Positions 20,052 through 47,127 of a DNA stretch of 64,000 nt are shown here, in pieces (position 1 is the first letter of the stretch; each line of letters starts with the position of its first letter). Both the position numbers and the translations under genes were made by a program. The notes under the pieces are model-generated. The model had not been told where the DNA came from and did no database searches. It saw only the letters and a program-made list of their open reading frames with translations. This DNA comes from Sphingobacteriales bacterium. GTDB taxonomy: Bacteria; Bacteroidota; Bacteroidia; Sphingobacteriales; Sphingobacteriaceae. The stretch covers positions 10,853-74,852 of the forward strand of contig JAYULE010000185.1 in the NCBI GenBank assembly GCA_043763845.1. Direction: 5' to 3'.

Positions 20052-20156
20052 CTTAACATAATTGTAACTGTTTGTTTACGAATATCTTAAATACTAAAAT
20101 TTGCAATTTTTTTTCTTAAAACGCTTGCATTTTTGTTTTACAACAATTACATTTAG
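20052..20156 (+). promoter_or_regulatory. Locus promoter/operator module, copy A
   Basis: CTTAACATAAttGTAACT, then gTTTGTTTACgAAt (20070-20083), 44 nt, CTTGCAT (TTGCAT at 20125-20130), 17 nt, TACATTTAGCC (TACATT at 20148-20153). The ATG follows 71 nt later. See copies B and C. Confidence 0.6.
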
Positions 20157-20223
20157 CCATTAAAACATTTAATTATAAATTAAGTAAAATAATAAAATTA
20201 GTTTTTACCCTAAAAAATAAATT

Positions 20224-20778
20224 ATGTCAATTACAATTCCCACCCAATACCAGTGGCTAAACCAAGAAGGTGGCCCTAAAATGCTTGTTGAAGCACTAAA
20301 ATTGTATGGTACGCTTGAAGTGACGGGCCATGGTAATAACTCTACCATTATGCAATGGGCAAAAGAAGTAGGCGGCAAAGTTGCCGATGTTTACAAAGCC
20401 GATAAAATACCTTGGTGTGGCTTATTTATGGCTGTAATAGCCAAACGTAGTGGTAAAATAGTACCTAAAGACCCACTTTGGGCATTAAACTGGGGCACAT
20501 TTGGTACCGCTACTAATACCGCAATGCTTGGCGATACCCTTGTTTTTGTTCGTCGTACTCTTGAAGGTGCAAAAGCTGGCCACGTTGCCGTATATATAGG
20601 CGAAGATGAAACTGCCTACCACGTTATAGGCGGCAACCAAGACGATAAAGTTAGCTTTACCCGTATGGCTAAAACCAGGCTTTATGCTATACGTAGGCCA
20701 CAATACAATGTACAACCAGCTAATGTGCGGGTAATAAAATTGTTGCCCAAAGGCGGGTTAAGTAATAATGAGGGGTAG
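20224..20778 (+). CDS. NlpC/P60-CHAP superfamily cell-wall hydrolase (TIGR02594-like, phage/T6SS-associated type), no signal peptide
   Basis: Candidate catalytic Cys in KIPWCGLFMA and His in AGHVAVYIGED, then YHVIGGNQDDKV. The overall pattern matches what I remember of the TIGR02594 family. Confidence 0.6.
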   Translation: MSITIPTQYQWLNQEGGPKMLVEALKLYGTLEVTGHGNNSTIMQWAKEVGGKVADVYKADKIPWCGLFMAVIAKRSGKIVPKDPLWALNWGTFGTATNTAMLGDTLVFVRRTLEGAKAGHVAVYIGEDETAYHVIGGNQDDKVSFTRMAKTRLYAIRRPQYNVQPANVRVIKLLPKGGLSNNEG

Positions 20779-20888
20779 GGATTTACTTGAATTATAAACA
20801 CAATTAACTTAGTTAGGTGTAAAAGCACTAGTGCATTTGTAAATTTTAGTGTGCCGATTTTAAGAGCGTTAACGATTGAGGCGGCATA

Positions 20889-20936
20889 CTTTTTATCAAT
20901 TGCCGTTGGCTTAAGCCAACCGCAATTGATAAAAAG
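20889..20936. repeat. 48-bp near-perfect palindrome between the hydrolase and patatin genes
   Basis: CTTTTTATCAATTGCCGTTGGCTT | AAGCCAACCGCAATTGATAAAAAG. The arms complement each other at 23 of 24 positions with no loop. No T-run follows. Confidence 0.85.
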
Positions 20937-20996
20937 ATATAGCCGAAAGCGTGTTTAAACGCCCAAATTATAAAAAATATTAATTCTCGAAACAAA

Positions 20997-22013
20997 ATGA
21001 AAAAAATAATTTCTATTGATGGTGGTGGTATACGAGGCATTATACCAGGCCAAGTGTTAGTGGCATTAGAAAAAAAACTACAAATAAAAACAGGAAACAC
21101 CGATGCTCGTATAGCGCATTATTTCGATTTTTTTGCAGGAACCAGTACTGGGGGTATTTTAACCTGCCTGCTACTTTGTCCCGATGAAACAAACCCTTTA
21201 ATGCCAAAATTTACGGCTAAGCAAGCGGTAGATTTATATATGAATAATGGAAATAAAATTTTTGATGCCTCGAGTTGGCAAAAATTTACACAAGGTTTAT
21301 TTGATGAAAAATACCCTAGTGCCCCTATTGAAAAAACTTTATTAAAATACTTTGGTAATACAAGGCTAAGTAGCCTCCTTAAGCCATGCCTAATAACTGC
21401 TTATGATATTATGGAGCGCAAAACTCATTTTTTTGCCCAGCATGATTATAATAGAAAAGGCGACGGTGGCGATTTTTTAATAAGAGATGTATGTAGGGCA
21501 ACATCGGCTGCGCCCACTTATTTTGAAACTGCGTTAATAAAATCTATTAGTGGGGTTTCTTACCCTTTAATAGATGGTGGCATTTTTGCCAACGACCCAG
21601 CATTGTGCGCCTACTCCGAAGTGCGTAACGCCAAAGGTTTACCTACTGCAAAAGATATGTTTATTCTTTCGCTTGGTACTGGAAGCGAAAGTAAATCCTA
21701 CAATTATAATAAAGCAAAAGATTGGGGTGCAGTAGGCTGGATAAAACCTGTAATTGATATTATGATGTCGGCATCGGCCGAAACCACCCATTACCATTTG
21801 CTAAAAATGTTTGCAGCAAATGGCAATCAAAATAACTATATGCGCATACAACCTAAAAGTTTAAGCAATGCAAAACCAGATATGGACGATGCCAGCCTAA
21901 ACAACTTAATGGCTTTAAAAGAAGTAGGCATTAAAACAGCTGAAAATTGTAACAGCGATTTAGATATTATTGTGGATATATTAATGGAAGGCGAGGATAA
22001 GGTTGAATATTAA
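20997..22013 (+). CDS. Patatin-like phospholipase
   Basis: Oxyanion box DGGGIRG, nucleophile elbow GTSTGG (GxSxG) and catalytic Asp in IDGGIFANDP. No signal peptide. Confidence 0.9.
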   Translation: MKKIISIDGGGIRGIIPGQVLVALEKKLQIKTGNTDARIAHYFDFFAGTSTGGILTCLLLCPDETNPLMPKFTAKQAVDLYMNNGNKIFDASSWQKFTQGLFDEKYPSAPIEKTLLKYFGNTRLSSLLKPCLITAYDIMERKTHFFAQHDYNRKGDGGDFLIRDVCRATSAAPTYFETALIKSISGVSYPLIDGGIFANDPALCAYSEVRNAKGLPTAKDMFILSLGTGSESKSYNYNKAKDWGAVGWIKPVIDIMMSASAETTHYHLLKMFAANGNQNNYMRIQPKSLSNAKPDMDDASLNNLMALKEVGIKTAENCNSDLDIIVDILMEGEDKVEY

Positions 22014-22178
22014 TTGAACAACGGGCTTTTGGACAACCAGCTTCCATACTTTCGTTTTCCGCCTCGGGCAGCCAGCCTCGGGATTTCTTAACAAGGCAAA
22101 AAAGCTTAAACCCAACACCAATTTTGCCCTGTTTTCGCTACCCCTTGTCCATCTCTCCGTTGGGGGTTGGTAGGCCAA

Positions 22179-22284
22179 CTTAACATAAACGTAACTATTT
22201 GTTTACAAATAAATTACACTTTTAAACACCTAATATTTTTATTTAAAAAAGCTTGCAATTACCAAAACCAAAATTTACATTTAT
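22179..22284 (+). promoter_or_regulatory. Locus promoter/operator module, copy B
   Basis: CTTAACATAAacGTAACT, then ATTTGTTTACAAAT (22197-22210), 45 nt, CTTGCAA (TTGCAA at 22253-22258), 17 nt, TACATTTATCC (TACATT at 22276-22281). The ATG follows 64 nt later. Confidence 0.6.
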
Positions 22285-22344: not shown

Positions 22345-23175
22345 ATGCCACACACCCAATGCCTAGTTACCCCTGCTTTTTCTATTGTAGGCACACAACA
22401 AATAATAAACCAACCAGCCAGTTTTTCTTTTGAGTTCGACAGTGTTGAAGACCAAGCCTTAATATTGGCCTACCAATGGTATGTAAATGGTAATTTAGTA
22501 ATCAATAAAAATCAACCCACATTTACCGAGCAAATGCAATTAGGTACTTATACTATTGGTGGCAGATTATTAACAGCGGAAGGCTGGAGCGGTATAAAAA
22601 CAATATTTTTTGAAAAATTAGAACAGAATATTACACCCATTGGTAATTTTACTTTTATGGCAGTTTATTTTAAATGGCTTGAAGGTGCAGGTACAGATTT
22701 AGATATTAAAGTGGGTTTTGAAAATACGGGTACAATTTACGATAAAAAATATGCTGGTTATAATCAGATTGCTAATATGCAAAATGGATACACATTGCCC
22801 GCAAATATCACTCCACAAACTGATGCTTATTTATGGTGGGGATCAGATAGTACAGGTACTGCTGGTACAGAATCTGTATTAATTGGTGTCCAAAAATTTA
22901 TTGCCGATAATCCTTTATCCCTAAATATAGTTGAAATTGCATTGTATGCTACTTGGTTCGGTGCACCAAATTCGGGCATATTTACAGTGGAGTTAAAGAC
23001 TTATTTAAATGGTACTATGGCCAAAAATGGTACTGTTTTTGAAAACACTGGCGGTACAGCCCCGTTTACTAATTCTAAAACAATTACTACTTTAAACAAT
23101 AAGCCTAATTACTATAAAATAGGCATCATAAAATATAACAAAACAAGCAATTTGGCACAATTACAAACTTTATAA
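22345..23175 (+). CDS. Hypothetical protein (276 aa) with an N-terminal Ig/PKD-like segment
   Basis: Long ORF directly downstream of module B. YQWYVNGNLV resembles a PKD/Ig-like strand pattern. I recognised no other motif. Confidence 0.5.
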   Translation: MPHTQCLVTPAFSIVGTQQIINQPASFSFEFDSVEDQALILAYQWYVNGNLVINKNQPTFTEQMQLGTYTIGGRLLTAEGWSGIKTIFFEKLEQNITPIGNFTFMAVYFKWLEGAGTDLDIKVGFENTGTIYDKKYAGYNQIANMQNGYTLPANITPQTDAYLWWGSDSTGTAGTESVLIGVQKFIADNPLSLNIVEIALYATWFGAPNSGIFTVELKTYLNGTMAKNGTVFENTGGTAPFTNSKTITTLNNKPNYYKIGIIKYNKTSNLAQLQTL

Positions 23176-23232: not shown

Positions 23233-25278
23233 ATGAAACACAAAAACCAAACCATCAAAAAAATTAAATTAGCACTAACATTTACCCTATTTGCATTTGC
23301 TAACTTAAACAATGCAACCGCACAATGGTCTAGCAACCCATCTGTAAACACCCCTATTGCCAACACCGCACTTGCCGAATACGACCACGAATCTATACCC
23401 GATGGCAGTGGGGGAATAATAGTAGTTTGGGCAGTTAGCGATGAAAATTTAGGTACCGATGTTATAAAAGCCAAAAGAGTATCGGCCAGCGGTGTAACTA
23501 TATGGGGAGGTACAAATGGCATCCAAATAACCAACTCTACCCGTAACCAAGCCTTTCCTCATTTGGTAACCGATGGTAATGGCGGGGCAATAATTACTTG
23601 GCTTAATTTTGATGTAGATGCAGAACTTACCGCAACAGAGGCTGATGTTTACGCTCAACGCATTAACGCTAGTGGCACACTTCTTTGGGGTAACGGTGGG
23701 CTTATAATAAATGCCACCCCTGGCAACCAAGTATTTTCAAGCATTGTTAGCGATGACGCATCGGGTGCTATTATTGTATGGTCCGATGAAGCCCAAGAAG
23801 CCATTTACGCACAACGAGTGAATGCCAATGGCCAAATTATTTGGGCTGCCAATGGCAAAAATATATATACTGCCTTAATAACTAAAACTATTGGTAATAG
23901 TCAAATTTTTAAGGGTATAAATGGCAATTTTACCGTAGTTTTTAATACCGTTTTCGAAGAGGTTAGAAACAACCAAACCAAAACTAAACCAAACGAATTT
24001 TACCTACAAACCATAAACGCAAACGGCCAAAACCAATTGGCTACCGCAATACAATTGTACAACTTTCCTACCGATTATGATATAGAAGACATTATAAGCG
24101 ATAATAACGGCGGTTTATTCAGCACCGTTTCTTACCAAACTAATACAACAGTAAGTTTATTTTTACAAAAATATTCGGCCTTAGGTATTCCTCAATTTGC
24201 GGGCACCTATGGCCTAACAGTTGACAATAGTATAGCAAAAAGCCAAACATACCCCCGTTACATTGCAAACACCAATATAATTACTGACAATACCGGTGGT
24301 GCTTTAATAGGCTGGACGGATGTACGAAACAGTATTACAGGTTTTTATGTACAACGTTTTAACAATACAGGCACAAAATTATTTAATGCCAACGATGTAA
24401 GTGTTTTTGGAAATAATTTGGATATAAACTCAGATGCACCCAGTGCAATTATTGATAGCGATGGGAATTATGTATATATAACGCCAAAAAGCAGTACTAC
24501 GTTAGGCAACGGAGCACTATACACCCAAAAAGTAAGCACCACAGGTACAACCTTATGGACAGCAGGCGGTGTATTGGTAAGCAACTCGGCAGGCAATAAA
24601 TCTAGTCCTACATTAACCCTTACGGGCAATAAAATGATAGCCCTTTGGGAAGATTTTAGAGCAAGTATACCGGCTGGTTTCAATTCGGATATTTATGCCC
24701 AAACTATAAACAGCAACGGAACCCTACCGGTTACCCTTACCACATTTACCGCCCTTTACGGGGATGATAAAGTACGTTTAAATTGGCAAACAGCAACCGA
24801 AATTAATAACCAAGGTTTTGATATAGAACGAAGTACCGACGGACTAATATTTTCAAAAATAGCTTATGTAAAAGGTAATGGAACTACCAATGTGCCTCAA
24901 AACTATAACCATAACGATGCTAATTTAATTTCACAAACCCAATACCTATACTACCGCTTAAAACAAGTAGATAGCAATGGCGAATTTGAATATTCAAACA
25001 TTGTATCAGTAAAAATACCGCAATTAAACAACGCAACTTTTAGCATTTACCCCAACCCAGTAACAGCTAAACAGTTTAATGTAAAATTAGCAGGTTTACC
25101 AAAAGGTAATTACCAAACAAGTATAACCAATATGGCAGGTATAAATGTTAAAAAAGCTATCATTTTTTGCGATGATACCTCAAACCAAGTTGTAAATGTG
25201 GATTTACCCAAAGGGATGTATAATTTAGAAATCACATCTGCAAATTACCGTCAAGTACAAAAACTGTTGGTAGAATAA
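23233..25278 (+). CDS. Secreted repeat (propeller-like) protein with a T9SS type-A C-terminal sorting domain
   Basis: Signal peptide (...FANLNNATAQ). Repeats of the form G-A-I-I-V/T-W...D-V/I-YAQR-I/V-NA-x-G...W. The C-terminus FSIYPNPVTAKQFNVKL...GMYNLEITSANYRQVQKLLVE is typical of T9SS CTDs. Confidence 0.8.
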   Translation: MKHKNQTIKKIKLALTFTLFAFANLNNATAQWSSNPSVNTPIANTALAEYDHESIPDGSGGIIVVWAVSDENLGTDVIKAKRVSASGVTIWGGTNGIQITNSTRNQAFPHLVTDGNGGAIITWLNFDVDAELTATEADVYAQRINASGTLLWGNGGLIINATPGNQVFSSIVSDDASGAIIVWSDEAQEAIYAQRVNANGQIIWAANGKNIYTALITKTIGNSQIFKGINGNFTVVFNTVFEEVRNNQTKTKPNEFYLQTINANGQNQLATAIQLYNFPTDYDIEDIISDNNGGLFSTVSYQTNTTVSLFLQKYSALGIPQFAGTYGLTVDNSIAKSQTYPRYIANTNIITDNTGGALIGWTDVRNSITGFYVQRFNNTGTKLFNANDVSVFGNNLDINSDAPSAIIDSDGNYVYITPKSSTTLGNGALYTQKVSTTGTTLWTAGGVLVSNSAGNKSSPTLTLTGNKMIALWEDFRASIPAGFNSDIYAQTINSNGTLPVTLTTFTALYGDDKVRLNWQTATEINNQGFDIERSTDGLIFSKIAYVKGNGTTNVPQNYNHNDANLISQTQYLYYRLKQVDSNGEFEYSNIVSVKIPQLNNATFSIYPNPVTAKQFNVKLAGLPKGNYQTSITNMAGINVKKAIIFCDDTSNQVVNVDLPKGMYNLEITSANYRQVQKLLVE

Positions 25279-25380
25279 GCAATGGTTTTTAACCGAAGAT
25301 TTGTTTTTTACCCGTACTTAACAGTATATAGTAATAACACACCTCCCTAAAGTTTTAACTGTGGCTTTATTGTTTTCTAA

Positions 25381-25413
25381 AAGGAAGTCTTCCCTCCATG
25401 GGAAGCCTTCCTT
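25381..25413 (+). other. Hairpin downstream of the T9SS cargo gene (possible terminator or insulator)
   Basis: AAGGAAGTCTTCCC-TCCAT-GGGAAGCCTTCCTT forms a 14-bp stem with one mismatch. No T-run follows. Confidence 0.35.
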
Positions 25414-25486
25414 AAAACAACAAACTACCCCTAACGCCACGCCATTTTTGTCTTACAAACAGCTGACTTTAGCTTGCAAAACCAAA

Positions 25487-25510
25487 CACCCCCTTTGGGG
25501 GCCGGGGGGA
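25487..25510 (+). repeat. C5/G5 hairpin element (dispersed ~25-nt family), abutting module C
   Basis: CACCCCCTTTGGGGGCCGGGGGGA. Same family as the copies at 35284, 35385-35616, 46211 and 47473. Confidence 0.75.
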
Positions 25511-25605
25511 CTTAACCATTTGTTTACAAATAATTTACATGTTGAAACATCTATTAATTATTTCTTAAATCTCTTGCAATTACAGAAAACTACATATACA
25601 TTTAG
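25511..25605 (+). promoter_or_regulatory. Locus promoter/operator module, copy C
   Basis: CTTAAC, then ATTTGTTTACAAAT (25518-25531), 45 nt, CTTGCAA (TTGCAA at 25574-25579), 17 nt, TACATTTAGCA (TACATT at 25597-25602). The ATG follows 102 nt later. Confidence 0.6.
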
Positions 25606-25703
25606 CAAACATTTACAAACACTTAAACATAGTCCGAAGTTCGTTTCCAATTGCGATTTTGTGTAGGAGATAAAAATTTTTAATTGATACTAAGAAAAAC
25701 ATA

Positions 25704-27578
25704 ATGGCATATCATTTTTTTGCAGATATTCAAAATTTAAACATTCAAACTGTTAATGCTTTTGGGCCGAGTGCCAACTCTACAATAAATACAATTGAGA
25801 ATGAAAATTTTTTAGTAACCAGTAAACATACTGCAACAGCAGATACTAACGCTATAGCAGTTTGTAATGGACAAATATTGGTACAACAACAAACGGAAAA
25901 TTCAGAACTTTTAAATATTGTATTTAAACCCCTACCCACACAACCGTTTAATTTTCCTAAAATCAAGTATTTTATATATAAAGGCATTAAGAAAGATAGT
26001 TTAATAGCTGCAACAACTACAGTCCTTGCCGCAAAAGGTAATAACGATTTAGTAGACGCTATTTGGGCAGCTTTTGAAACAACTAACACTACAGGTAGCC
26101 CAAGCCAAGCAATTTTAGGCTTAGATACTGCCATAAATAATTTGCCGGAAAGCCAAACAATCGAAGATGTATTTTCGACTATTTACCCCGAGGTACAGTT
26201 TTGGCATATAAATGCGGGTAACACTATAGGTAAATTTGATAAAGATGCAATAGGTTTTGAAATTGTTTTAGATACACTTTTTTACCAACCTACATTGGCA
26301 TTGGCTAGAAACTCAGCTACCTTTATTAGGGCAAAAACATTATCAACCACACCGCTCCAAAAAGATTTTTTTGAACATTGGAACGATAAAGAAAGTATCC
26401 TAAATTTTATAGACCCTTGTGCATTTTTTGGTAGTTTTTATGCTGATAAATTAAGCGTAATTAGCGCAAGCCAAAAAAGTAAATGGAAAGGGGAAGATTT
26501 ATATAATAACCTTCTAAGTAAATTTTCTAATAAAAATAAATGTTATATAGACATTAGAAATGAATTTAATTTTTCGCTTAATTATTTCAAAAATTATGGA
26601 TTAAGCCCAACCAATAATTTTACTGAAATTAAAATAAAAAAGGGCGATACAGCCTTCGCCTCAATTGATTATTATGCCAATTCATGGCCAATCTTAATCT
26701 TGGATAATACTGATTTTGCTACCTCAACTGCTAACCACCAAAGTTTTAGTTTACAGTTGCCTTCTGGTAACGGGGACAACCCTGAACCTATAATTTATTT
26801 TAGCAAGGCATATAATAATTCTGATACATTCCCTGATGAATATGACAAACAAGAAAAATTTAAACCTTTAGCTGTAGCAAATAATTTTTCCGATGAATTT
26901 AATATAGGCTTACCTTGGATAAACGGTAATTTAATAAGCTCTTATGTGCAAATTAAATACTGCAAAAGGAAAAGCGAAGAAGTTTTGCCACTGCCCCTAA
27001 ATACCCAAATGCGTAAAGGGGATAACTTTGACTGTCTTTTTAGTCCAAAAATAAATTTCAACTATAACAATTCACTTACACCAACTAAATTTTGTAACGA
27101 AAGTTTCTATATAGATTTAAGGACAATACATGGTTATGATGCTGTTTTTGTACCTAGTATTTCATTTGATTTAGATAAAGTAATATTGTTTGCCAACCTA
27201 GATGCGTACAACGAAAATACTACTAAAAAATATCTTCTCCCGTTTGAACTTAACAGTGAATTTAAAAATGTAAATACTGATTTTAAATTTATAGATAATT
27301 TAATATTAAAATATCAAAACCAACCACTTTCTGAAATTGGAGATAATGTCTTAATTACTTTTACGCATCCACAATGGAGTACAATTATTGGTTATAATGA
27401 ATTTGAAGGTAACTACCCTGTTTTTATAAGTATTGTTGAAAATAGACTAGAAAATATTAACAATCAAAGCTATACTGTTTTTGATATTATATTAAAAGGA
27501 TATAAAATTAATGGAAATAAGATTGAGGTTACATCACATAATTTAAATTTTAATATTTATTCTTTAAACTTAAATTAA
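25704..27578 (+). CDS. Hypothetical protein (624 aa), no signal peptide
   Basis: First ORF after module C. Its stop overlaps the next start (TAATG at 27576-27580). I recognised no motif. Confidence 0.6.
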   Translation: MAYHFFADIQNLNIQTVNAFGPSANSTINTIENENFLVTSKHTATADTNAIAVCNGQILVQQQTENSELLNIVFKPLPTQPFNFPKIKYFIYKGIKKDSLIAATTTVLAAKGNNDLVDAIWAAFETTNTTGSPSQAILGLDTAINNLPESQTIEDVFSTIYPEVQFWHINAGNTIGKFDKDAIGFEIVLDTLFYQPTLALARNSATFIRAKTLSTTPLQKDFFEHWNDKESILNFIDPCAFFGSFYADKLSVISASQKSKWKGEDLYNNLLSKFSNKNKCYIDIRNEFNFSLNYFKNYGLSPTNNFTEIKIKKGDTAFASIDYYANSWPILILDNTDFATSTANHQSFSLQLPSGNGDNPEPIIYFSKAYNNSDTFPDEYDKQEKFKPLAVANNFSDEFNIGLPWINGNLISSYVQIKYCKRKSEEVLPLPLNTQMRKGDNFDCLFSPKINFNYNNSLTPTKFCNESFYIDLRTIHGYDAVFVPSISFDLDKVILFANLDAYNENTTKKYLLPFELNSEFKNVNTDFKFIDNLILKYQNQPLSEIGDNVLITFTHPQWSTIIGYNEFEGNYPVFISIVENRLENINNQSYTVFDIILKGYKINGNKIEVTSHNLNFNIYSLNLN

Positions 27579-28228
27579 TGATAGAAAATAAGACAGAAAA
27601 ATATAACTTAAAAAAACGGATAAGTTTTTTTATTGGTGTTACACTTATTTTAATGGGTATAGGTTTAATATTGTTAGGTGATACTTTTACTTATGCACCA
27701 TATATTTTTATGCTTTTTGGAATATTTGTTATCATAATTACAAAATATAATGTTAAGCCTACACAGTTGTTAGTTGTATCTATTTTTATAATGTATTTTA
27801 TTACTTCTTTTTATTACGAAGCTATTATCAAATCTTATGATTTTAAAATAACAGTGCCACAAAATCAAAATAAATTTTATTTCATTGCATCCAACTATTA
27901 CTTAAAATGGGGGGATTACTTATTGACTTGGTTTAAACCTAAAACCATAAATATTAATTTAGTAGATGATAAAGTTTTATACCTGAACAGAGGGATGCCA
28001 AATAGTATTTTTTATGACAGAGTGCCTATAGCAAAACAAGGTTATATTATTTCAAATGAAGTTCGAGGTGATTATGAGTTTATTGTTTTATTACCTTTTA
28101 AAAACCGCAAACAAGATTTTAGTTATCAAGAAGTTCGGAAATTAACCGATAGCATTTACAATATGATATTAAATAAAAAATTAATGGAATATAAACTAGA
28201 TTCAATAGAAAAAAATGGATTCAATTAA
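27578..28228 (+). CDS. Membrane protein (216 aa) with three N-terminal TM helices
   Basis: Hydrophobic stretches ISFFIGVTLILMGIGLILLG, YIFMLFGIFVIIIT and LLVVSIFIMYFITSFYY. It is translationally coupled on both sides. Confidence 0.55.
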   Translation: MIENKTEKYNLKKRISFFIGVTLILMGIGLILLGDTFTYAPYIFMLFGIFVIIITKYNVKPTQLLVVSIFIMYFITSFYYEAIIKSYDFKITVPQNQNKFYFIASNYYLKWGDYLLTWFKPKTININLVDDKVLYLNRGMPNSIFYDRVPIAKQGYIISNEVRGDYEFIVLLPFKNRKQDFSYQEVRKLTDSIYNMILNKKLMEYKLDSIEKNGFN

Positions 28229-28985
28229 CATAAAATTTACAGCATTTATATCAAAGGAATTAGGTAAAAAACTAAAGGATTTTTTTGTTAAAATTCCATA
28301 CATAAATATTGCAGTTAATAAAGATGCGTTTTTAATTGATATACAAAAAGTAACTGGTTATTGGGGCGAAGAGCCATTATCTGGCCTTCCGTTTTTAAAA
28401 GAATATTTATTTTACAAAACAGATGATCGTTCATTTAATCAAGTGGGTACGCATAGGTTACAGTTATCAGCAAGTATTGATGTGTCAAAAATTGGCCTAA
28501 CCAGCTTTTACAATCAGAATACAAAATATTTTAAACCAACCGCTGGTGACAGTGAAAGATATACTATATATTTTGACCGTTTTTTTGATAACAGGTTTAC
28601 TGATAAAAGCGAGGTAAAAAAAGCAAATCCAACTTCTGGTTTAGAATTGGTTTACCCAACGTTTAAAAATTCTTTATTTTCTAGTTTAACCGATATTTTA
28701 AATTCAGCAACTATACAAGCATCGACTTCTGCTGGTTACCCTTTTACAAATCCATTAACCACCCCTAATATTGATATTGATTTAAAATTAAAAATACTTA
28801 AAACTTCAGATAGAATTTATTGCTATTTTACTGGCACACACAACCTATTTCCCTGTTATGAATTAATTTGTAATGGTAAATTAATATATATGTATGATCC
28901 TATTAAATTTAAAAGACTTGGTCCTGACCCAATAAATTTGAATAGAACTCAAACTTTTGAAAAAGCTATTTATTTTTCGATTTAA
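28215..28985 (+). CDS. Hypothetical protein (256 aa)
   Basis: It overlaps the upstream ORF by 14 nt and ends 22 nt before the giant ORF start. I recognised no motif. Confidence 0.5.
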   Translation: MDSINIKFTAFISKELGKKLKDFFVKIPYINIAVNKDAFLIDIQKVTGYWGEEPLSGLPFLKEYLFYKTDDRSFNQVGTHRLQLSASIDVSKIGLTSFYNQNTKYFKPTAGDSERYTIYFDRFFDNRFTDKSEVKKANPTSGLELVYPTFKNSLFSSLTDILNSATIQASTSAGYPFTNPLTTPNIDIDLKLKILKTSDRIYCYFTGTHNLFPCYELICNGKLIYMYDPIKFKRLGPDPINLNRTQTFEKAIYFSI

Positions 28986-35283: not shown

Positions 35284-35308
35284 TCCCCCTAACCCCCGAA
35301 GGGGGGAT
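35284..35308 (-). repeat. C5/G5 hairpin element, reverse orientation
   Basis: TCCCCCTAACCCCCGAAGGGGGGAT is the reverse complement of the 47473 copy (ATCCCCCCTTCGGGGGTTAGGGGGA). Confidence 0.8.
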
Positions 35309-35350
35309 TGAAAGCGTTAATAAAAAGAATATAAAAATGAAAACAATACA

Positions 35351-35616
35351 TATAAACATAACATATTCACACACTCCTTCGTTTACACCCCCTTCGGGGG
35401 CTGGGGGGATTATAAACACAACACATTCACACGCTCCTTCATTCACACCCCCTTCGGGAACTGGGGGGATTATAACCACCACACATTCACCCACTCCTTC
35501 CTCTACACCCCCTTCGGGAACTGGGGGGATTATAACCACCACACATTCACCCACTCCTTCGTTTACACCCCCTTTGGGGGCTGGGGGGATTACACCCCCT
35601 TCGGGGGCTGGGGGGA
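35351..35616 (+). repeat. Tandem array of a 60-bp unit (about 4.4 copies), each carrying a C5/G5 hairpin, ending 17 nt before the 1669-aa ORF
   Basis: The period is exactly 60 nt (copies at 35361-35420, 35421-35480 and 35481-35540, then a truncated copy and an extra hairpin). The unit is ACACATTCACnCnCTCCTTCnTTnACACCCCCTTCGGGnnCTGGGGGGATTATAAnCACn. Confidence 0.9.
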
Positions 35617-35633
35617 CTAAACTTTAACCCACT

Positions 35634-41074: not shown

Positions 41075-43165
41075 ATGACCATAGAAGACTTAAAAATTGA
41101 AATTAACCGTGTACTACAAAGCCCAATCGAGACACCTTTAACAGGTACCCAGCTAGCCACTCTTTTAAAAACCATGGCAGACGAACTCGACGAAGTATCA
41201 GAATTTTCTACCTTAACTGCTTTGCCTAATCCAGGTAAAACGGGTAAAATATATGTAACCTTAGATACAAATTTTACCTACCGCTGGGGCGGGAGTTCGT
41301 ACATAAAAATTAATGATATAGATATAAGCACCAAAGCCGATTTGATTGCAGGTAAGGTGCCAGCAAGCCAATTGCCAAGCTATCTTGATGATGTTTTAGA
41401 AGTCGCAAACCTTGTGTCATTACCCGTAATAGGCGAAAGCGGTAAAATATACGTAACCATTGACACCAATTTACAGTACAGGTGGAGCGGTAGCACTTAC
41501 ATTGCGATTGGGGGTGGTATAGGAACATACCTTACAAAAACACAAGCAAATTTAATAGATGTAGGTGGGGATAATTGGTACTTACCTTGGTTAGATAATA
41601 CTAATCAACCTATTGCTGATGTAGAAATACGGCCTTTAATTGTAGAGGTTAACGGTATAGTAATGCCTATTAACCAATTAGACAGAAGCTTTACGCCACC
41701 AAGATTATATGGTAATTTTCAGAGTAATTTAGAGTTACAAACTATTAAGGTATTAATTAGCAAGAATATAACTACCAGCGTACCAACGGTTTTATGGGAA
41801 AATATACTAGGCAACCCTAAAGATAATTTACCATTGCAAGCTAAGTTTGATGCTTTAGATGGAGGTTTATCATTTTATTTTGAAAAGACCAAAGCTGAAA
41901 TAGATACTTTAATATCAACTAACGCCTTAGTAATAGGAGCATTATATAAAATAAGTGGTGTACATCCAGATTTATATAATGATGGTACTAATTCAGGAAC
42001 TACAATTTATCTAATTGCTTTAACCGTTAATAAATTAAGTAGTGAAGGATATGGAGAATTTTATAATCCTCGTTATTTTCCTGATAATAATGGATACATT
42101 TGGTCTAATAAATCAAGTTATAATATTTCCAGTATTGTTGGGACTTTTATTGAAAATGAAACTATTACAACTGAAATGGGAGATACTGGAGTATTATTTA
42201 AAATCGCTCAATCCGGATTATTTGATTTAACATCAAGTGGTTGGAATAGTGACTCAAATTATTTTACTGGAGATATAAGTGGAGCAAGAGTTAATATTTA
42301 TAGACCAAATAATGGTATTTTTCAAAGTCCTAATGGACCTGCTATAATGTATGGTCGACCACAAATTTATCCTATAATATATCACTCCACCACAACTTTA
42401 AATTCATCAGTTATTTGGGGTGGATATTACTGGCAAAATACTGGTGGTACTATTGGTTCAAGTTTAGATGTTTTAACTTTATCTCCTGATAATTGGATAA
42501 AAATACCTTATAGTAATAATGCTTATAATAAAGTAATTGATGTAATTGAATACGATATTCAATATAATATAATAACAAGAAGAAAAGATAATTTAGGTAA
42601 TGATATTATTTGTAATTATAAGGATATAGTAAATTTTGGTTACAATACAATTAATCGATTTCAGTTTGGGAATAGAAGTTTTTATAATAACAAAGTATAT
42701 AATTCAGAATTAGAATGTATAAATGTTGGTAATATACTAACTCAAAATACTAGTTATAAACTATCTATACATTCAAATACATTAATGAGTGGTAGTAGTA
42801 TTCGTTCAAATTATTTAGTTAGTCCAACACTTAATTTAACTAATTATTTTTTAGTTGAGGGTAGTAGTATTAATTCAAATTATTTAACTAATGGAAGTAG
42901 TATTAATTCAAATACATTAGTCAGTTCTTCTATTAAGTCTAATTACTTAACTAATGGTGCTCAAATAAGTAATATTGCTATTAGTGAGAAATTGTTACAA
43001 AATAATAATATTTCATCAGTAAATATATCAAACATACTTAATACTGGTACATTACTACTCAATCCAAACATTACTAAAACATTCTTCAGAAGACCTGATG
43101 GAATTGTTAAGATAAGCTACTATAATAATTCAGACCAATTAATAATTGCCAACTTAAACGATTAA
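41075..43165 (+). CDS. Phage-tail-fibre-like protein (696 aa)
   Basis: Duplicated module LPNPGKTGKIYVTLDTNFTYRWGGSSYIKI / LPVIGESGKIYVTIDTNLQYRWSGSTYIAI, a motif I associate with phage tail-fibre N-termini. The C-terminus has short Ser/Asn repeats (SSINSNYLTNGSSINSNTL...). No signal peptide. Confidence 0.65.
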   Translation: MTIEDLKIEINRVLQSPIETPLTGTQLATLLKTMADELDEVSEFSTLTALPNPGKTGKIYVTLDTNFTYRWGGSSYIKINDIDISTKADLIAGKVPASQLPSYLDDVLEVANLVSLPVIGESGKIYVTIDTNLQYRWSGSTYIAIGGGIGTYLTKTQANLIDVGGDNWYLPWLDNTNQPIADVEIRPLIVEVNGIVMPINQLDRSFTPPRLYGNFQSNLELQTIKVLISKNITTSVPTVLWENILGNPKDNLPLQAKFDALDGGLSFYFEKTKAEIDTLISTNALVIGALYKISGVHPDLYNDGTNSGTTIYLIALTVNKLSSEGYGEFYNPRYFPDNNGYIWSNKSSYNISSIVGTFIENETITTEMGDTGVLFKIAQSGLFDLTSSGWNSDSNYFTGDISGARVNIYRPNNGIFQSPNGPAIMYGRPQIYPIIYHSTTTLNSSVIWGGYYWQNTGGTIGSSLDVLTLSPDNWIKIPYSNNAYNKVIDVIEYDIQYNIITRRKDNLGNDIICNYKDIVNFGYNTINRFQFGNRSFYNNKVYNSELECINVGNILTQNTSYKLSIHSNTLMSGSSIRSNYLVSPTLNLTNYFLVEGSSINSNYLTNGSSINSNTLVSSSIKSNYLTNGAQISNIAISEKLLQNNNISSVNISNILNTGTLLLNPNITKTFFRRPDGIVKISYYNNSDQLIIANLND

Positions 43166-43276: not shown

Positions 43277-46135
43277 ATGTGGAAAAATTTAAATAGCATC
43301 ATACAACAATTAGGCACTGCACTTAGAATAAGTGTTGGTAAAGACACACCTATAAACATTTACTCGAAGGAGCAGGTAGACGACCTCATTACTACTGGTT
43401 CAACTGATATATCTGAACAACTTGAACTTAAAGTAGATAAAGTTACTAACAAAAATTTAATCTTAGATTCTGATATAACCAAACTTGCTGGCATAGAAGC
43501 AGGTGCAGAGGTAAATATAAATGCAGATTGGAATGCCACAAGTGGAGATGCTCAAATATTAAATAAACCAATCATACCTTCAATAGTTGGTTTAGCTACA
43601 AATTCTTATGTGGATACTAAACTTGGTTCGTATGTTAGTAAAACATTACCTGATACTATTACCGCATTAAAAACACTTACTAATGGCATTGATGTTAGTT
43701 CAGCTAATGGAAATATTTTAAATGTAAATACACAGGGAGTTTATATAGGTAATGTACCTTTTACTCCTCTTTCAGCAAGTTTTAGTACCTTATCTAGGAC
43801 GTTAAAATCAGCTACTAACCCAACAATCCCTTTAGATAGGGGGTTTGTTAACCAACAAAATATAACACTAAACAGTTCGGCTACTATTTTTCCAGCTATT
43901 GATTGTGGGTTTAATGCTACAGCTGTTATAAATAGTTCAAATTTAGGAGGGCCTACGGGTACATCAACTATTATAGGTCTACGCAATTCAGTATCTTTGT
44001 CACAAGAATCAGTACCTTATACCAATGCAATATTTGGTAGTGTATCTCTAGCAGCTAATAGTTCTGGTAATTCACAAAATTGGACAAATGCTAACATTGC
44101 TAGAGGAGGGCTTATTGCTCATTTAGCAAACTTTAGGACATTTGGCACAACTTCAACTGGTACAATAAGTAACGCTACAGGTGTTGCATCTGTATTAACT
44201 CTTACAGCACCATTGATTACTATCACAAACGCTCAAAATTATGCATCGTTAAACCCAGAGAATACATCTACATTTTCTTTAATTAATATGCGAGGTTATG
44301 TTGGAGAGGAAATAACAAAAGGTACTAATAACACAAATTTATTATTAGGTACTGGTACAAGTCCTACAGGCAATTGGAATATATTTTCTAGTTCGTCGTA
44401 CCCAAATAATTTAGGTAATGCTAATACAAGAGTGGGTAGTTTAACTATATCAAATACCCCTAACGTTTCTAGTTCTGCTAATAAAGTTTTAGTAAGAAAT
44501 GATGCTACAGGCTTAATTGAAACTACTACAGGTAACAGCACAGATGCCAATTTAAGAGATAGGTCAACCCATACTGGTATACAAGCTATAAACACAATTA
44601 CGGATTTACAAACTAGCTTAGATGCTAAAGAAAGTATTTCCAATAAAGGTATAGCTAACGGCTATGTAGGATTAAACAACAACGTAAAAATAGACACCGC
44701 TTATTTTCCTGATAGTATATTAGGAAACTTAAAATACGGAGGTAGTTATAATGGTTCAATAATAAGTGCATCTGCTGATTTTACAGCTTTAAACGGATTA
44801 AACTTACCCACAACTGGGTATGCAGGTGTCTACTTTATTACAACTACATCTTTTACAAGAGCAGGTACAAACTATGATGTTGGTGATTGGGCAATTCATA
44901 ACGGCGCAAACAACTATGTAAAAGTTGATAATACGGATGCTGTTACTAGCATACACGGCAGGTTGGGCAACGTGGTAGCTGTTACTGGTGATTACAATAC
45001 AGGGCAGATTACAGAGGTAACAAACAAAAAATTTGCTACAGATGCACAACTTGTACAGATAGCTACTAATACATCTGAAATAGCTACAAAAGAACCTATC
45101 ATAAATATATTACCTATCTTAAAGGGTGGTACAGGTTCATCAACAAAAAACTTTGTTGATTTAACTACAAACCAACCAACAATAGGAGGGATTAAAGGAT
45201 TTACATCTCCTATGACTACAAATAAGATTTCTGCTAGTGCTAATCTTACAGCTTCTGGTGATATAGTATCAATAGCTGGAGATTTAGGATCATTTATTAA
45301 CGATACACAAACTGGATTATCGATAATACCTACCGTATCTAATAGTGGTGAGTCAACTAATTCAAACATGTTATTTGTTTCTCCAACTTATAATCCATCA
45401 GTTGGTAGTGGCGGATTACATTATCTGCTTAATATAGGTAAACAAATAACTGGGGCACATAAAGAATATTTTACTATAAATGATCTGGGGTTTGCTAATT
45501 TTAATAAAAACTTAACTATTGGTAATATTGAAGAAAATCAAACAACATTATCACTTACTGGTGGGATTAATGGAGGATCGTTATTAAGATTAAATAGGTT
45601 CAGTAATGGTATCAGTAATGCATATTCATTTTCATTGCCATCAGCAGGATTAAGATTATCAGATGCTAGTAACAATAGTGTTGCAACATTTTCAAGTACA
45701 GTGCCTGGAGCATTTAATAGTTTATATCTAGGAGAACCTAATAAAACAACAAGTGATGCTAGACCTTCAGTACTATCAGCTACTACTTTTACGAATGCTG
45801 CCGGAGCAAACGTGGCAGGTCAAGCTTTATATTTGCAAGGAGGATTAGGTGTGGGAACATCAGTACCAGGTGATGTTATAGTTTATACAGGTAATTCCGC
45901 AGCTACAACAGTTTTACATACAACAACACCAAGATTAACGATTAAAGGTGGTACGGGTGCTGCCACTTTTACTAATACGGTAACTTCTACACAATTCAGA
46001 CTATCCGCTTTAAACATTGCTCCTGCTAGTGCTACTGCAACAGGTACTTTGGGTGAGATAAGAGTTGTAACAGGGTTTATATATGTTTGTATAGCAACTA
46101 ATACTTGGGTTCGTACAGCTTTAACAACTTGGTAG
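43277..46135 (+). CDS. Phage-tail-fibre-like protein (952 aa)
   Basis: ITKLAGIEAGAEVNINADWNATSGDAQILNKP is a common motif near the N-terminus of phage tail-fibre proteins. A long Ser/Thr/Asn/Gly-rich shaft follows. The C-terminus is GEIRVVTGFIYVCIATNTWVRTALTTW. No signal peptide. Confidence 0.7.
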   Translation: MWKNLNSIIQQLGTALRISVGKDTPINIYSKEQVDDLITTGSTDISEQLELKVDKVTNKNLILDSDITKLAGIEAGAEVNINADWNATSGDAQILNKPIIPSIVGLATNSYVDTKLGSYVSKTLPDTITALKTLTNGIDVSSANGNILNVNTQGVYIGNVPFTPLSASFSTLSRTLKSATNPTIPLDRGFVNQQNITLNSSATIFPAIDCGFNATAVINSSNLGGPTGTSTIIGLRNSVSLSQESVPYTNAIFGSVSLAANSSGNSQNWTNANIARGGLIAHLANFRTFGTTSTGTISNATGVASVLTLTAPLITITNAQNYASLNPENTSTFSLINMRGYVGEEITKGTNNTNLLLGTGTSPTGNWNIFSSSSYPNNLGNANTRVGSLTISNTPNVSSSANKVLVRNDATGLIETTTGNSTDANLRDRSTHTGIQAINTITDLQTSLDAKESISNKGIANGYVGLNNNVKIDTAYFPDSILGNLKYGGSYNGSIISASADFTALNGLNLPTTGYAGVYFITTTSFTRAGTNYDVGDWAIHNGANNYVKVDNTDAVTSIHGRLGNVVAVTGDYNTGQITEVTNKKFATDAQLVQIATNTSEIATKEPIINILPILKGGTGSSTKNFVDLTTNQPTIGGIKGFTSPMTTNKISASANLTASGDIVSIAGDLGSFINDTQTGLSIIPTVSNSGESTNSNMLFVSPTYNPSVGSGGLHYLLNIGKQITGAHKEYFTINDLGFANFNKNLTIGNIEENQTTLSLTGGINGGSLLRLNRFSNGISNAYSFSLPSAGLRLSDASNNSVATFSSTVPGAFNSLYLGEPNKTTSDARPSVLSATTFTNAAGANVAGQALYLQGGLGVGTSVPGDVIVYTGNSAATTVLHTTTPRLTIKGGTGAATFTNTVTSTQFRLSALNIAPASATATGTLGEIRVVTGFIYVCIATNTWVRTALTTW

Positions 46136-46210
46136 AATATTCTTTAGTAATCCCCATTTTGGGGTAGGGTAACAAATTTTGCTCGTTGCCATTGAGCCTA
46201 GTATTCATAC

Positions 46211-46234
46211 ATCCCCCTTTGGGGGCTAGGGGGT
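46211..46234 (+). repeat. C5/G5 hairpin element
   Basis: ATCCCCCTTTGGGGGCTAGGGGGT. A degenerate copy lies at 46150-46170 (ATCCCCATTTTGGGGTAGGGT). Confidence 0.75.
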
Positions 46235-46348
46235 AATTCGATGGCTCGAGGCATAATAAAAAATATTTTTTTAACCCTTACAATAAATCTCAACTTTAAA
46301 AGTTAATATCATTGATAAAAATATCCTAACCCTCTAAAAATTAAAACT

Positions 46349-47080
46349 ATGGCATCAACATCCGAAACCGGTCACGCAAAAAATGTAGCAAACTTAGAAA
46401 CTATGATTTCCTATTGCACAGGCTACGGCACAACTTACAAACCCTCAAATCCCGAAATTGCATTAGCTGCATTAACAACCTTATACAACGATAGCAAAGC
46501 AGCTTTAAAATTAGTGAAAACCACCGAAACATCATTTAATGATGTCGAAGGGCAACGAAAATTAATTTTTAAATCATTAAAACCATTGTCAACTAAAATT
46601 TTCGCTTCATTACAAAGCTCAGGCGTACCCTCAACCGTACTTAACGATGCACAAACAATCAACCGAAAAATTCAAGGTCAGCGAGCAAATAACACAACCC
46701 CAATCACTACTGCCGATGCCCAAATACCAAAAGACAAAATTTCAATATCCCAACAAAGCTACGATATGCAAATAGATCATTTCGAAAAGCTGATAGAACT
46801 TACACTCACCCAACCCAAATACAGCCCAAACGAAACACCCATAAAAACAACAACCCTTTCCAATTACAAAACTCAACTCCAAAACATAAATACAGCTGTA
46901 AAAAATGCTTACACACCATATTTCAACGCAATGATAGTAAGAAACAAAAAATTATACGACATTCAAATAGGCTTAACAAGCAAAGCTAAACTAGTTAAAG
47001 CCTACGTCAAATCTATCTATGGGGCATCAAGTCCCGAGTACAAGGGCATCAACAGCTTAAGCTTTAGAACTATTAAATAA
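46349..47080 (+). CDS. Hypothetical protein (243 aa), last gene of the locus
   Basis: The ORF is followed by a strong intrinsic terminator. I recognised no motif. Confidence 0.5.
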   Translation: MASTSETGHAKNVANLETMISYCTGYGTTYKPSNPEIALAALTTLYNDSKAALKLVKTTETSFNDVEGQRKLIFKSLKPLSTKIFASLQSSGVPSTVLNDAQTINRKIQGQRANNTTPITTADAQIPKDKISISQQSYDMQIDHFEKLIELTLTQPKYSPNETPIKTTTLSNYKTQLQNINTAVKNAYTPYFNAMIVRNKKLYDIQIGLTSKAKLVKAYVKSIYGASSPEYKGINSLSFRTIK

Positions 47081-47087
47081 TTTATAC

Positions 47088-47127
47088 CTCGCCACAACCC
47101 ATCGTATCTGGGTGTGGCGAGTTTCTT
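47088..47127 (+). terminator. Rho-independent terminator closing the locus
   Basis: CTCGCCACAACCC-ATCGTATCT-GGGTGTGGCGAG (12 bp with one bulge), followed by TTTCTT. Confidence 0.65.

Follow-up and report, generated by a model that had tools for sequence, protein, structure and literature searches.

Gene content of the locus

We analyzed a 64-kb stretch of DNA from a Sphingobacteriales bacterium (contig JAYULE010000185.1, positions 10,853 to 74,852; hereafter the window), and in particular a locus that lies between the gene for a 942-amino-acid exported protein (16787-19615) and ruvB (47616-48635). Twelve credible open reading frames (ORFs) occupy positions 20224-47080 on the + strand, and their products are referred to by their lengths in amino acids (Table 1). 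The core of the locus is formed by p624 and two giant proteins, p2083 and p1669, whose genes are conserved together in many other genomes; the toxin and immunity genes that accompany this core in related loci suggest that the locus may belong to a widespread, undescribed antibacterial toxin-delivery system. All locus proteins were scanned with Pfam, PHROG and NCBIfam, and seven of them with PADLOC. A first-pass annotation made by reading the sequence had counted thirteen same-strand ORFs, of which twelve stand; the remaining one is a doubtful 101-amino-acid frame with a GTG start (25361-25666) that overlaps the promoter and hairpin region and is probably not a gene. The parts that this annotation had recognized are borne out: a signal-less NlpC/P60-type hydrolase (p184), a patatin with the expected motifs (p338), one cargo protein of the type IX secretion system (T9SS; p681), and two proteins with phage tail-fiber motifs (p696 and p952), both of which match phage proteins. 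It was also right that the giants and the fiber-like proteins carry neither a signal peptide nor a T9SS C-terminal domain, and that the locus has a shared promoter module, present in three copies, and ends at a strong terminator.

Table 1. Genes and regulatory elements of the locus (window coordinates; aa, amino acids; nt, nucleotides).
Feature	Position	Strand	Details
Upstream module copy 1, before p184	20060-20200	+	alignment; pattern TTTGTTTACGAATATCTTAAA at 20071-20091
p184, NlpC/P60-like (TIGR02594) peptidoglycan hydrolase without signal peptide, accessory	20224-20778	+	184 aa
p338, patatin-like phospholipase, accessory	20997-22013	+	338 aa
Upstream module copy 2, before p276	22189-22283	+	95 nt, 77% identity to 25510-25604; exact pattern at 22198
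p276, C4 family	22345-23175	+	276 aa
p681, T9SS-secreted protein	23233-25278	+	681 aa
Upstream module copy 3, before p624 and the giant-gene operon	25510-25604	+	repeat and pattern match
p624, core component C2	25704-27578	+	624 aa
p216, small membrane protein, hypervariable slot	27578-28228	+	216 aa
p256, orphan protein, hypervariable slot	28215-28985	+	256 aa
p2083, core giant C0	29008-35259	+	2083 aa from ATG; 2100 from upstream TTG
Spacer between p2083 and p1669	35284-35650	+	GC-rich hairpin and 4-5 tandem 60-nt repeats, each with CCCCCTTCGGGGGCTGGGGGG
p1669, core giant C1	35634-40643	+	1669 aa
p696, phage-type fiber-like protein	41075-43165	+	696 aa
p952, phage-type fiber-like protein	43277-46135	+	952 aa
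p243, orphan ORF	46349-47080	+	243 aa
Intrinsic terminator closing the locus	47088-47127	+	hairpin CTCGCCACAACCC...GGGTGTGGCGAG, then TTTCTT; dG -22.4 kcal/mol; z -5.3

A widespread three-gene core

The conserved unit was compared across ~85 loci, 77 of them in species-representative genomes and some ten taken from other sources, and an ORF-by-ORF comparison was made for 80 loci, one of which (L003) is the window's own contig, leaving 79 others. The families of p2083, p1669, p624 and p276 are named C0, C1, C2 and C4, respectively, and C5 denotes a protein of ~900-1,100 amino acids encoded between C2 and C0 in Sphingobacteriaceae and Chryseobacterium. Of the 79 other loci, 65-74 keep the gene order C2, variable slot, C0, C1, with all of these genes on the same strand. 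C0 is present in all 80 loci and is directly followed by C1 in 74 of them, while C2 homologues were found in 65 of the 79 (66/80 with the window contig), always within the module. Conservation of p624 is limited to residues 1-350, as coverage by high-scoring segment pairs collapses past residue ~350; its C-terminal half is conserved in the nearest subclade only. Outside Bacteroidota the C2 proteins are much larger (2,500-2,960 residues) and begin with an N-terminal subtilase domain (Peptidase_S8), and five of them end in a Peptidase_C15-like tail. Relatives of p276 occur in 25 Sphingobacteriaceae loci by tblastn (26 with the window contig), always upstream of the module and on the same strand; the N-terminal ~100 residues of this family are conserved and its C-terminus is variable, and p276 itself matches PHROG 24956, a family of unknown function (E 4.8e-16).

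The p2083 superfamily comprises 1,328 clusters at 50% identity in an exhaustive HMMER search (E <=1e-3), 620 of which reach E <=1e-30. Its full-length members number in the hundreds and are all labeled 'hypothetical', with no characterized protein among them. Repeating the homologue search with the C1 alignment, which is shallow at 25 sequences, yielded no new sequences. Within Bacteroidota the module is found in Sphingobacteriaceae, Chitinophagaceae, Flavobacteriales, Cytophagales and Saprospiraceae, and beyond this phylum its hosts are Chlorobiota, Kapaibacteria, Acidobacteriota, Planctomycetaceae (Planctomycetota), Alphaproteobacteria and one gammaproteobacterium, from soil, freshwater and marine habitats. 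In the non-Bacteroidota loci its direct neighbors are genes without relation to it, frequently encoded on the opposite strand. Some genomes hold two or three modules, namely a Pelobium metagenome-assembled genome (MAG; L021 and L023) and one alphaproteobacterial MAG (L056, L068 and L076).

Toxin and immunity genes in the variable slot of relatives

Across all loci, the ORF that directly precedes C0 is hypervariable, and the proteins encoded around it in relatives of the window provide a link to toxins. Among 21 C5 proteins, 20 N-termini fall into one cluster (two clusters in total), whereas the last 160 residues form 10 unrelated clusters; for example, the C5 proteins of L001 and L018 are 62% identical over residues 1-761 and unrelated beyond. 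Four C5 members end in an EndoU nuclease domain (EndoU_bacteria). Over 111 C-termini the toxin-domain count is four EndoU_bacteria and five Peptidase_C15-like, plus DUF3289 in L083, and most tails have no Pfam match. The small ORF downstream of C5, which is sometimes present as three or four tandem paralogs, co-varies with the tail: for the three largest tail types, the pairings CT0-IM0, CT1-IM1 and CT2-IM2 hold in 4/5, 4/4 and 4/4 cases, respectively. In these two respects the relatives are built like polymorphic toxin systems, combining a shared N-terminus that bears alternative tails with a co-varying downstream immunity gene.

The closest relative of the window (L083, 49% identity) carries the toxin on C2 itself, as its C2 protein ends in DUF3289 and is followed by four tandem lipoprotein paralogs. 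DUF3289 is a homologue of colicin M that experiments have shown to be an antibacterial type VI secretion system (T6SS) effector acting in the periplasm (PMC11148199). An orphan copy of this tail lies together with an immunity homologue in L023, one of the two Pelobium loci. In addition to incomplete pieces of C0, these two loci (L021 and L023) hold an orphan cassette of toxin tail and immunity gene, an arrangement that would be expected of recombinational toxin switching.

In the window the corresponding slot coincides with an island of low GC content (27100-28450; 0.20-0.29 versus ~0.36 around it) that runs from the end of p624 across p216 into the start of p256, which suggests a recently exchanged cassette. 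The p216 protein has 2-3 transmembrane helices, its start codon overlaps the p624 stop codon, the two genes are translationally coupled, and it is a singleton. Its position matches that of the immunity ORFs of relatives, which makes it a candidate immunity protein. Its neighbor p256, whose gene overlaps p216 by 14 nucleotides, is likewise a singleton without a family or PDB match and is a candidate cargo, toxin or adaptor protein. Since both are singletons within a low-GC island, a toxin/immunity pair is plausible in the window, as judged from position and composition.

Families and predicted structures of the giant proteins

Apart from a marginal match of p2083, the proteins p2083, p1669, p624, p216, p256 and p243 match no family in Pfam, PHROG, NCBIfam or PADLOC, and sequence and profile searches of the PDB returned no matches for p2083, p1669, the C2 N-domain, the p624 C-terminal half or p256. 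The marginal match is to DUF6603 (PF20248): residues 892-1001 of p2083 align to profile positions 330-432, about a fifth of the profile, at 26.1 bits (cutoff 27; E 4.1e-6). Several p2083 homologues have precomputed DUF6603 matches, and remote DUF6603 proteins from Mycetohabitans align over residues 247-963. DUF6603 is itself uncharacterized, and no mention of it was found in the literature searched.

In its predicted layout, p2083 has a helical or α/β N-domain (residues 1-236), an antiparallel β-meander of ~46 long strands (239-986) that overlaps the DUF6603 match, a middle (~1300-1650) that varies and in relatives is LamG-like, and a C-terminal region that is conserved. An AlphaFold model of residues 1-1200, built from a 45-sequence alignment, has a mean predicted local distance difference test score (pLDDT) of 76.5 and a predicted template-modeling score (pTM) of 0.41. 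When searched against the PDB with Foldseek, this model matches Deinococcus SlpA, LptD, the PapC/FimD ushers and the ApoB100 belt with high probabilities, and with template-modeling (TM) scores on the query of at most 0.15; because these scores are very low, the resemblance to β-barrels and β-sheets reflects local architecture and not homology, and we do not claim that p2083 is an outer-membrane barrel. A Foldseek search against BFVD gave nothing convincing. For p1669, the model of residues 131-1330 is a string of β-sandwich modules (pLDDT 78.8, pTM 0.57); to judge from the sequence pattern, the protein appears to end in fibronectin type III-like domains, with no Pfam match. Its Foldseek matches are weak, the best being tail-tip chains of phages T1 and Sf11 (E ~3e-4, TM ~0.1, probability <0.5), with carbohydrate-binding-module-like jellyrolls also present, and none is strong enough to call homology. 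We also considered that the long C1 forms of other phyla might be fusions of C1 with a fiber, which was rejected as the two show no similarity.

No relatives of C0 or C1 were found when p2083 and p1669 were searched by tblastn against 50,697 phage genomes, nor of C0 in IMG/VR, which was scanned with the C0 alignment only. Signal peptides are absent from the C0, C1, C2, C4, C5 and fiber families; in the window, the giants and fibers lack both a Sec signal and a long hydrophobic segment, and p681 is the only locus protein with a Sec signal. Beyond the marginal DUF6603 match, the core machinery lacks the defining features of the families tested.

Two plasmid-borne gene groups contain remote relatives of the giants. 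On the megaplasmid of the fungal endosymbiont Mycetohabitans endofungorum (L081, 9161-22182), a transposase-flanked cassette encodes, in order, a 1,322-residue C1-like protein, a phospholipase D (PLD)-like phospholipase and a 2,496-residue C0-like DUF6603 protein; the C-terminus of the 1,322-residue protein matches residues 1416-1590 of p1669 (hhalign probability 89%). On pHME322 of Haloferax mediterranei (L082, 12892-26005), overlapping genes encode proteins of 1,858 residues (with a DUF6603-like segment), 1,370 residues and 1,142 residues, the last a Baseplate_J protein, with no other tail genes nearby. The C1 profile does not match this Baseplate_J protein and reaches only E 0.01 against its 1,370-residue neighbor. 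The Haloferax operon may be a distant cousin that links the module to baseplate proteins.

Phage-type fibers and lytic enzymes

Downstream of the core, p696 carries the motif GKIYVTxDTNxxYRWxGSxY twice, at residues 57 and 123, a repeat that is also present in the fiber of L011. Its PHROG matches are to a peptidase (phrog_15439, the strongest), a head decoration protein and a minor tail protein, and tblastn finds related proteins in crAss-like, Flavobacterium and Cellulophaga phages that are annotated as tail fibers, peptidases or hypothetical proteins. The adjacent p952 contains the 29-mer LAGIEAGAEVNINADWNATSGDAQILNKP at residue 70 and matches PHROG 13892, a minor tail protein family, as well as 176 phage records, among them Rhizobium, Gordonia and Synechococcus phages; those of its matches that are annotated are minor tail proteins. 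Residues 400-700 of p952 are shared with fiber-like C3/C21 proteins encoded after C1 in six other loci (L013, L017, L022, L063, L059 and L067). In all, fiber-like proteins follow C1 in about 36 of the 80 loci, and these have a ~50-residue N-terminal module in common and varied C-termini.

At the head of the locus, p184 matches TIGR02594 with 89.9 bits (cutoff 70.55) and PHROG 1259 ('baseplate hub subunit and tail lysozyme') over its lysozyme portion (E 3.5e-23), and contains the Cys/His motifs IPWCGLF and GHVAVYIG. It has no signal peptide and would serve as a lysis enzyme or else as an effector acting on the cell wall. The patatin p338 (Pfam Patatin, E 5.7e-23) contains GGGIRG at residue 9, GTSTGG at residue 48 and DGG at residue 193, and is either a membrane-lysis factor or an effector. 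The p184 gene is preceded by the shared upstream module, a promoter/operator-like element (TTTGTTTACAAA) with the pattern TTTGTTTACRAATA...CTTGCAWTT...TACATTTAGCC and an imperfect palindrome, TTTGT-TT-ACAAA. Its three copies precede p184, p276 and p624, and there are no others in the window; 0.13 matches are expected by chance, and three copies were reached in 0 of 100 shuffles. The element is absent from all other loci.

Counted over the window and other loci, peptidoglycan hydrolases of at least four unrelated families, non-orthologous between loci, adjoin the module. A partial p184-like ORF is present in L023, Phage_lysozyme in L083, L005 and L009, and Amidase_2 in L084, L080 and L053, with Muramidase, Peptidase_M15_4 and PG_binding_1 domains also found among 150 neighboring ORFs. 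A patatin adjoins the module in three independent loci, namely the window, L053 (31% identity, directly before Amidase_2) and L085, where it follows C2 and a 199-residue ORF. The recurrence of non-orthologous hydrolases and of patatin beside the module fits release by lysis. In L083 and L005, and not in the window, a divergent S24 (CI/LexA-type) repressor gene lies next to the lysozyme gene at the locus head. No immunity-like small ORF is located beside p184 or the patatin in the window, which favors a lysis role over an effector role without settling the matter.

Comparison with known systems

Scans with Pfam, PHROG and NCBIfam found no capsid, portal, terminase, integrase, sheath, tube, VgrG, PAAR, spike or baseplate match in the window, and these libraries and PADLOC identified no ATPase or secretion component in the locus. 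A Walker A motif is absent from the twelve proteins except for a chance ALPNPGKT in p696. The flanks of the ~85 loci, drawn from six phyla, likewise hold no capsid, portal, terminase, tube, sheath or integrase gene. The first-pass annotation, which by eye had seen no sign of most of these markers, is thus upheld by the library scans and the Walker A check. No prophage lies adjacent in the window or in the ~85 related loci, and the giants are neither ordinary adhesins nor known prophage baseplate or tail proteins, in keeping with its view of them as novel parts. Its description of the system as phage-derived holds for the fibers and the hydrolase but not for the three core giants, for which the phage searches gave no relatives. 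Co-occurrence of the giant pair with fiber genes in other Bacteroidota, which it had named as a check, was found, an effector complex is in keeping with the effectors carried by the modules of relatives, and lysis mediated by the hydrolase and the phospholipase remains plausible. Its view of the 27-kb locus as one functional unit has to be revised: p681, p216, p256 and p243 have no relatives among the other loci, p184 and the patatin are accessory genes that are not syntenic in most relatives, and the conserved core consists of three genes. It had overlooked this core and also the toxin/immunity slot, the best clue to function.

Among known systems, the relatives resemble polymorphic toxin systems such as Rhs, contact-dependent inhibition and the cargo of T6SS and type VII secretion (Zhang, Aravind et al. 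2012; PMC3482391), with which they share a conserved N-terminus bearing swappable tails (EndoU, DUF3289), co-varying downstream immunity genes, tandem immunity paralogs and orphan tail/immunity cassettes. However, the C2 N-domain and the C5 N-region match no known trafficking domain, no component of type II, V, VI or VII secretion or of Photorhabdus virulence cassettes is linked to the module, and the toxin genes are embedded with two ~2,000-residue proteins that have no known relatives. The TANFOR polymorphic toxins of Bacteroidetes were compared through their N-terminal TANFOR domain alone (PMC7073777), and no matching family appeared in NCBIfam scans of the locus proteins. Colicins and S-type pyocins follow the overall logic proposed here, with modules for receptor binding and translocation, a nuclease or colicin-M-type toxin at the C-terminus, an immunity gene and release that depends on lysis, but they are single 30-80 kDa polypeptides that parasitize Tol/Ton import, whereas here the conserved accessory proteins exceed 6,000 residues and the fibers are encoded separately. 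Tailocins (R- and F-type pyocins) are alike in their signal-less parts, phage-type fibers (p696 and p952 here), nearby endolysin-type enzymes and, in two relatives, an S24 (PrtR/CI-like) repressor. They differ in that the module, in the window and in related loci, has no tube, sheath, baseplate (gp25/J/W), tape measure or spike, in that its core has no phage homologues, and in that killing here would be achieved by an enzymatic toxin with an immunity protein and not by membrane puncture.

The Tc (ABC) toxins provide a parallel, as they consist of three very large signal-less subunits of similar sizes, one of which bears an exchangeable C-terminal toxin. Their release by endolysin-type enzymes (type 10 secretion, phage-like lysis cassettes) is known. 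Pfam finds no VRP1, TcA_TcB_BD, SpvB, TcdB_toxin_mid or RHS repeat in the locus, however, the PDB sequence searches gave no match, no Tc structure is among the top 50 Foldseek matches of the p2083 and p1669 models, and Tc toxins are without immunity genes or fibers. Of the parts of a type 10 secretion or phage lysis cassette (holin, endolysin and spanin), an endolysin-type enzyme is present as p184 and recurs in relatives, with no holin or spanin identified. Extracellular contractile injection systems and T6SS are unlike the module, which has no match to a sheath, Hcp-like tube, VgrG/PAAR, gp25/TssE, Baseplate_J or AAA+ ATPase; Baseplate_J occurs only beside the remote DUF6603 relative in Haloferax. 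T9SS cargo is represented by p681 alone, which has the signal peptide and sorting domain that the giants, fibers, p624 and p276 lack, and the seven proteins scanned with PADLOC gave zero matches to anti-phage defense systems.

A model for toxin delivery and its alternatives

We propose that the locus is a member of a widespread, undescribed antibacterial toxin-delivery system in which a signal-less, fiber-targeted complex is probably released by lysis, a reading that we consider possible while falling somewhat short of probable; the putative toxin link of this particular locus is drawn from its relatives. In this model C2, C0 and C1 would form one complex, which C2 would join through its conserved N-terminal domain (residues 1-350), a proposed adaptor. 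In many relatives the exchangeable toxin would reside on the C2 C-terminus or on the separate neighbor C5, with the cognate immunity gene or genes following. C0 and C1 would act as carrier and translocator, C0 contributing the β-meander (barrel-like) domain and a variable lectin-like region and acting at the target membrane, and C1 contributing its β-sandwich arrays, while the phage-type fibers encoded downstream would set target specificity. As no component has an export signal, we propose that assembly takes place in the cytoplasm and that lysis of the producer sets the complex free, which here would be brought about by the co-regulated p184 hydrolase and p338 patatin. In the window the toxin would be the p624 C-terminal half or p256, and p216 would be its immunity protein. 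By analogy, such a system would match the logic of colicins, pyocins, tailocins and lysis-released Tc toxins using unrelated parts. A bolder form of the proposal holds that C2-C0-C1 is a self-contained protein-delivery machine, unrelated to phage tails, Tc toxins and the numbered secretion systems, that occurs in six or more bacterial phyla and has distant relatives among Betaproteobacteria and haloarchaea; in it the ~46 strands of C0 would form a conduit at the target envelope, C1 and the fibers would select the target, C2-type proteins would carry the toxins, and a hydrolase and phospholipase would lyse the producer. In this full form we regard it as somewhat unlikely.

Several observations weigh against toxin delivery as the function of this locus. 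The window lacks the C5 toxin gene, and no recognizable toxin domain was found in its proteins with Pfam and the other libraries. The C-terminal half of p624 is kept at 40-44% in four related loci and may therefore be structural rather than toxic. A hidden Markov model of the ~50-residue N-terminal adaptor of the relatives' fibers has no significant match to p696 or p952, hydrolases adjoin the module in only about a dozen of the ~85 loci, and no holin or spanin was identified, a function for which the patatin might substitute. The global confidence of the AlphaFold models is modest for both giants (pTM 0.41 for p2083 and 0.57 for p1669). Finally, most loci outside Bacteroidota consist of C2-C0-C1 alone (e.g. 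L002, L066 and L078), without an immunity-like small ORF, fiber or hydrolase within 10 kb, so that interbacterial toxin delivery may be a lineage-specific use of a core whose ancestral role was different.

One alternative keeps the delivery system and makes p184 and the patatin its cargo, an amidase and a phospholipase comparable to the Tae and Tle effectors of T6SS, with the complex leaving the cell by a non-lytic route. NlpC/P60 amidases, muramidases and phospholipases (patatin, PLD) are classic antibacterial effector classes, the patatin of L085 follows C2 and a 199-residue ORF, a PLD lies between the giants in Mycetohabitans, and no holin or spanin was found. Periplasm-acting effectors that are shared with siblings normally need an immunity protein, however, and none is encoded beside either enzyme; the lysozyme of L083 and L005 sits at the locus head beside an S24 repressor, as in the control of pyocin and prophage lysis, and no export apparatus is encoded. 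We judge this variant unlikely. It is less probable still that the giants are baseplate- or tail-tip-like proteins of a cryptic phage-like particle whose other parts are encoded elsewhere or are too divergent to recognize, the locus being a remnant or satellite of a mobile element. The phage-type fibers, the tail-lysozyme-like hydrolase, the T1 and Sf11 tail-tip chains that head the p1669 Foldseek matches, and the Haloferax operon that joins a DUF6603-like giant to a Baseplate_J protein all point in this direction, but those structural matches are weak (probability <0.5, TM ~0.1), the giants have no relatives in the phage genomes searched and C0 has none in IMG/VR, the particle genes sought in the window and in the flanks of ~85 loci are missing, and the flanks consist of housekeeping genes, with neither attachment repeats nor a tRNA seen.

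A three-gene module of non-antagonistic function, for instance a cell-envelope or storage structure, that merely happens to lie among unrelated genes has a similarly small probability to that of the cryptic particle. Such chance juxtaposition would explain why p681, p216, p256 and p243 are unique to this contig, why p184 and the patatin are not syntenic in most relatives, and why the loci of other phyla hold the three giants only. It is at odds with the shared promoter module that ties together p184, p276 and p624, and with the recurrence of non-orthologous hydrolases, patatin, fibers and toxin/immunity pairs around the module in independent lineages. Lastly, we consider it very unlikely that the locus is an intracellular conflict or defense system of the abortive infection type, with the giants acting as sensors of invaders that unleash nuclease, lipase or protease effectors within the cell. 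None of the components has a signal peptide, the EndoU, patatin, PLD, S8 and C15 peptidase domains are also common in defense systems, and the module is patchily distributed, sometimes multi-copy and in one case transposase-flanked; yet there is no PADLOC match and no NTPase, nuclease-sensor or nucleic-acid-binding domain, the co-variation of tails with downstream ORFs that include lipoprotein arrays, together with a periplasm-acting colicin-M-like tail, implies attack from outside, and receptor-binding-type fibers make little sense within a cell.

If the toxin-delivery model is correct, it would describe a new interbacterial delivery route and a new mode of trafficking for polymorphic toxins, would explain what DUF6603 and several thousand giant genes now labeled 'hypothetical' do, and could provide modular scaffolds, with fibers and exchangeable toxin tails, for engineered antibacterials. 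The three conserved components total more than 6,000 residues without a characterized homologue, and few known β-sheet domains formed by a single chain would be as large as the predicted ~46-strand β-meander. The module is also present in several cultured type strains, which makes direct testing possible; cultured carriers include Mucilaginibacter rubeus (CP043450, 2.82-2.85 Mb), Pedobacter nyackensis DSM 19625, Pedobacter alluvionis DSM 19624, Sphingobacterium yanglingense DSM 28353 and Chryseobacterium sp. FH1.

Remaining genes, intergenic repeats and flanks

The T9SS protein p681 has a signal peptide and a Por_Secre_tail C-terminal domain (Pfam, E 5.9e-8). No homologue is present in any related locus, where C4 and C2 are adjacent, and p681, inserted between p276 and p624, is probably not part of the system. 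T9SS-sorted members of a family of β-helix/immunoglobulin-like proteins of 330-1,280 residues adjoin the module on either strand in six Bacteroidota loci (L044, L045, L047, L048, L060 and L062). Together with p681 they may reflect coincidence, as T9SS cargo is common, or a loose association. At the other end of the locus, p243 has no match in Pfam, NCBIfam, PHROG or PADLOC and no relative in other loci, and its membership in the system is unsupported.

The 374-nucleotide spacer between p2083 and p1669, which contains a CCCCC-GAA-GGGGG hairpin, is longer than those of relatives (~30-100 nucleotides). Its GC-rich hairpin motif recurs at 25486-25517, 46210-46241 and 47473-47504, and resembles intergenic elements of the repetitive extragenic palindromic type. 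The gap between the locus terminator and ruvB is filled by a tandem repeat (47135-47424; ACCTTAATATTGCCACCTGCA-like) with a periodicity of 21 nucleotides (and 84 nucleotides). Rfam has no match in the window.

The window's flanks contain two-component regulators, an exopolysaccharide-type operon and housekeeping genes. The exported 942-residue protein upstream of the locus has an outer-membrane-protein-like C-terminus (...FGFNYNL) and a faint precomputed Tricorn_N match; it belongs to no Pfam, NCBIfam or PHROG family, has no relative in the other loci and is probably unrelated to the module. Further upstream, an operon on the - strand (6173-15837) encodes two family 2 glycosyltransferases, a tetratricopeptide repeat (TPR)-YaiO outer-membrane barrel protein, a DUF4838/glycosidase-like protein, a HEAT-repeat protein and a response regulator, and looks like an operon for the secretion of exopolysaccharide or biofilm matrix. 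Regulatory genes also accompany the module in a Flavobacterium/Hydrocarboniphaga-type subgroup (L086, L087, L059 and L067), where an extracytoplasmic function sigma factor, a ~480-500-residue protein and a divergent LuxR-type response regulator precede it, and these lineage-specific regulators indicate that regulation of the module differs between lineages. In the same subgroup, a gene for an anti-Pycsar-like metallo-β-lactamase lies downstream of the module.

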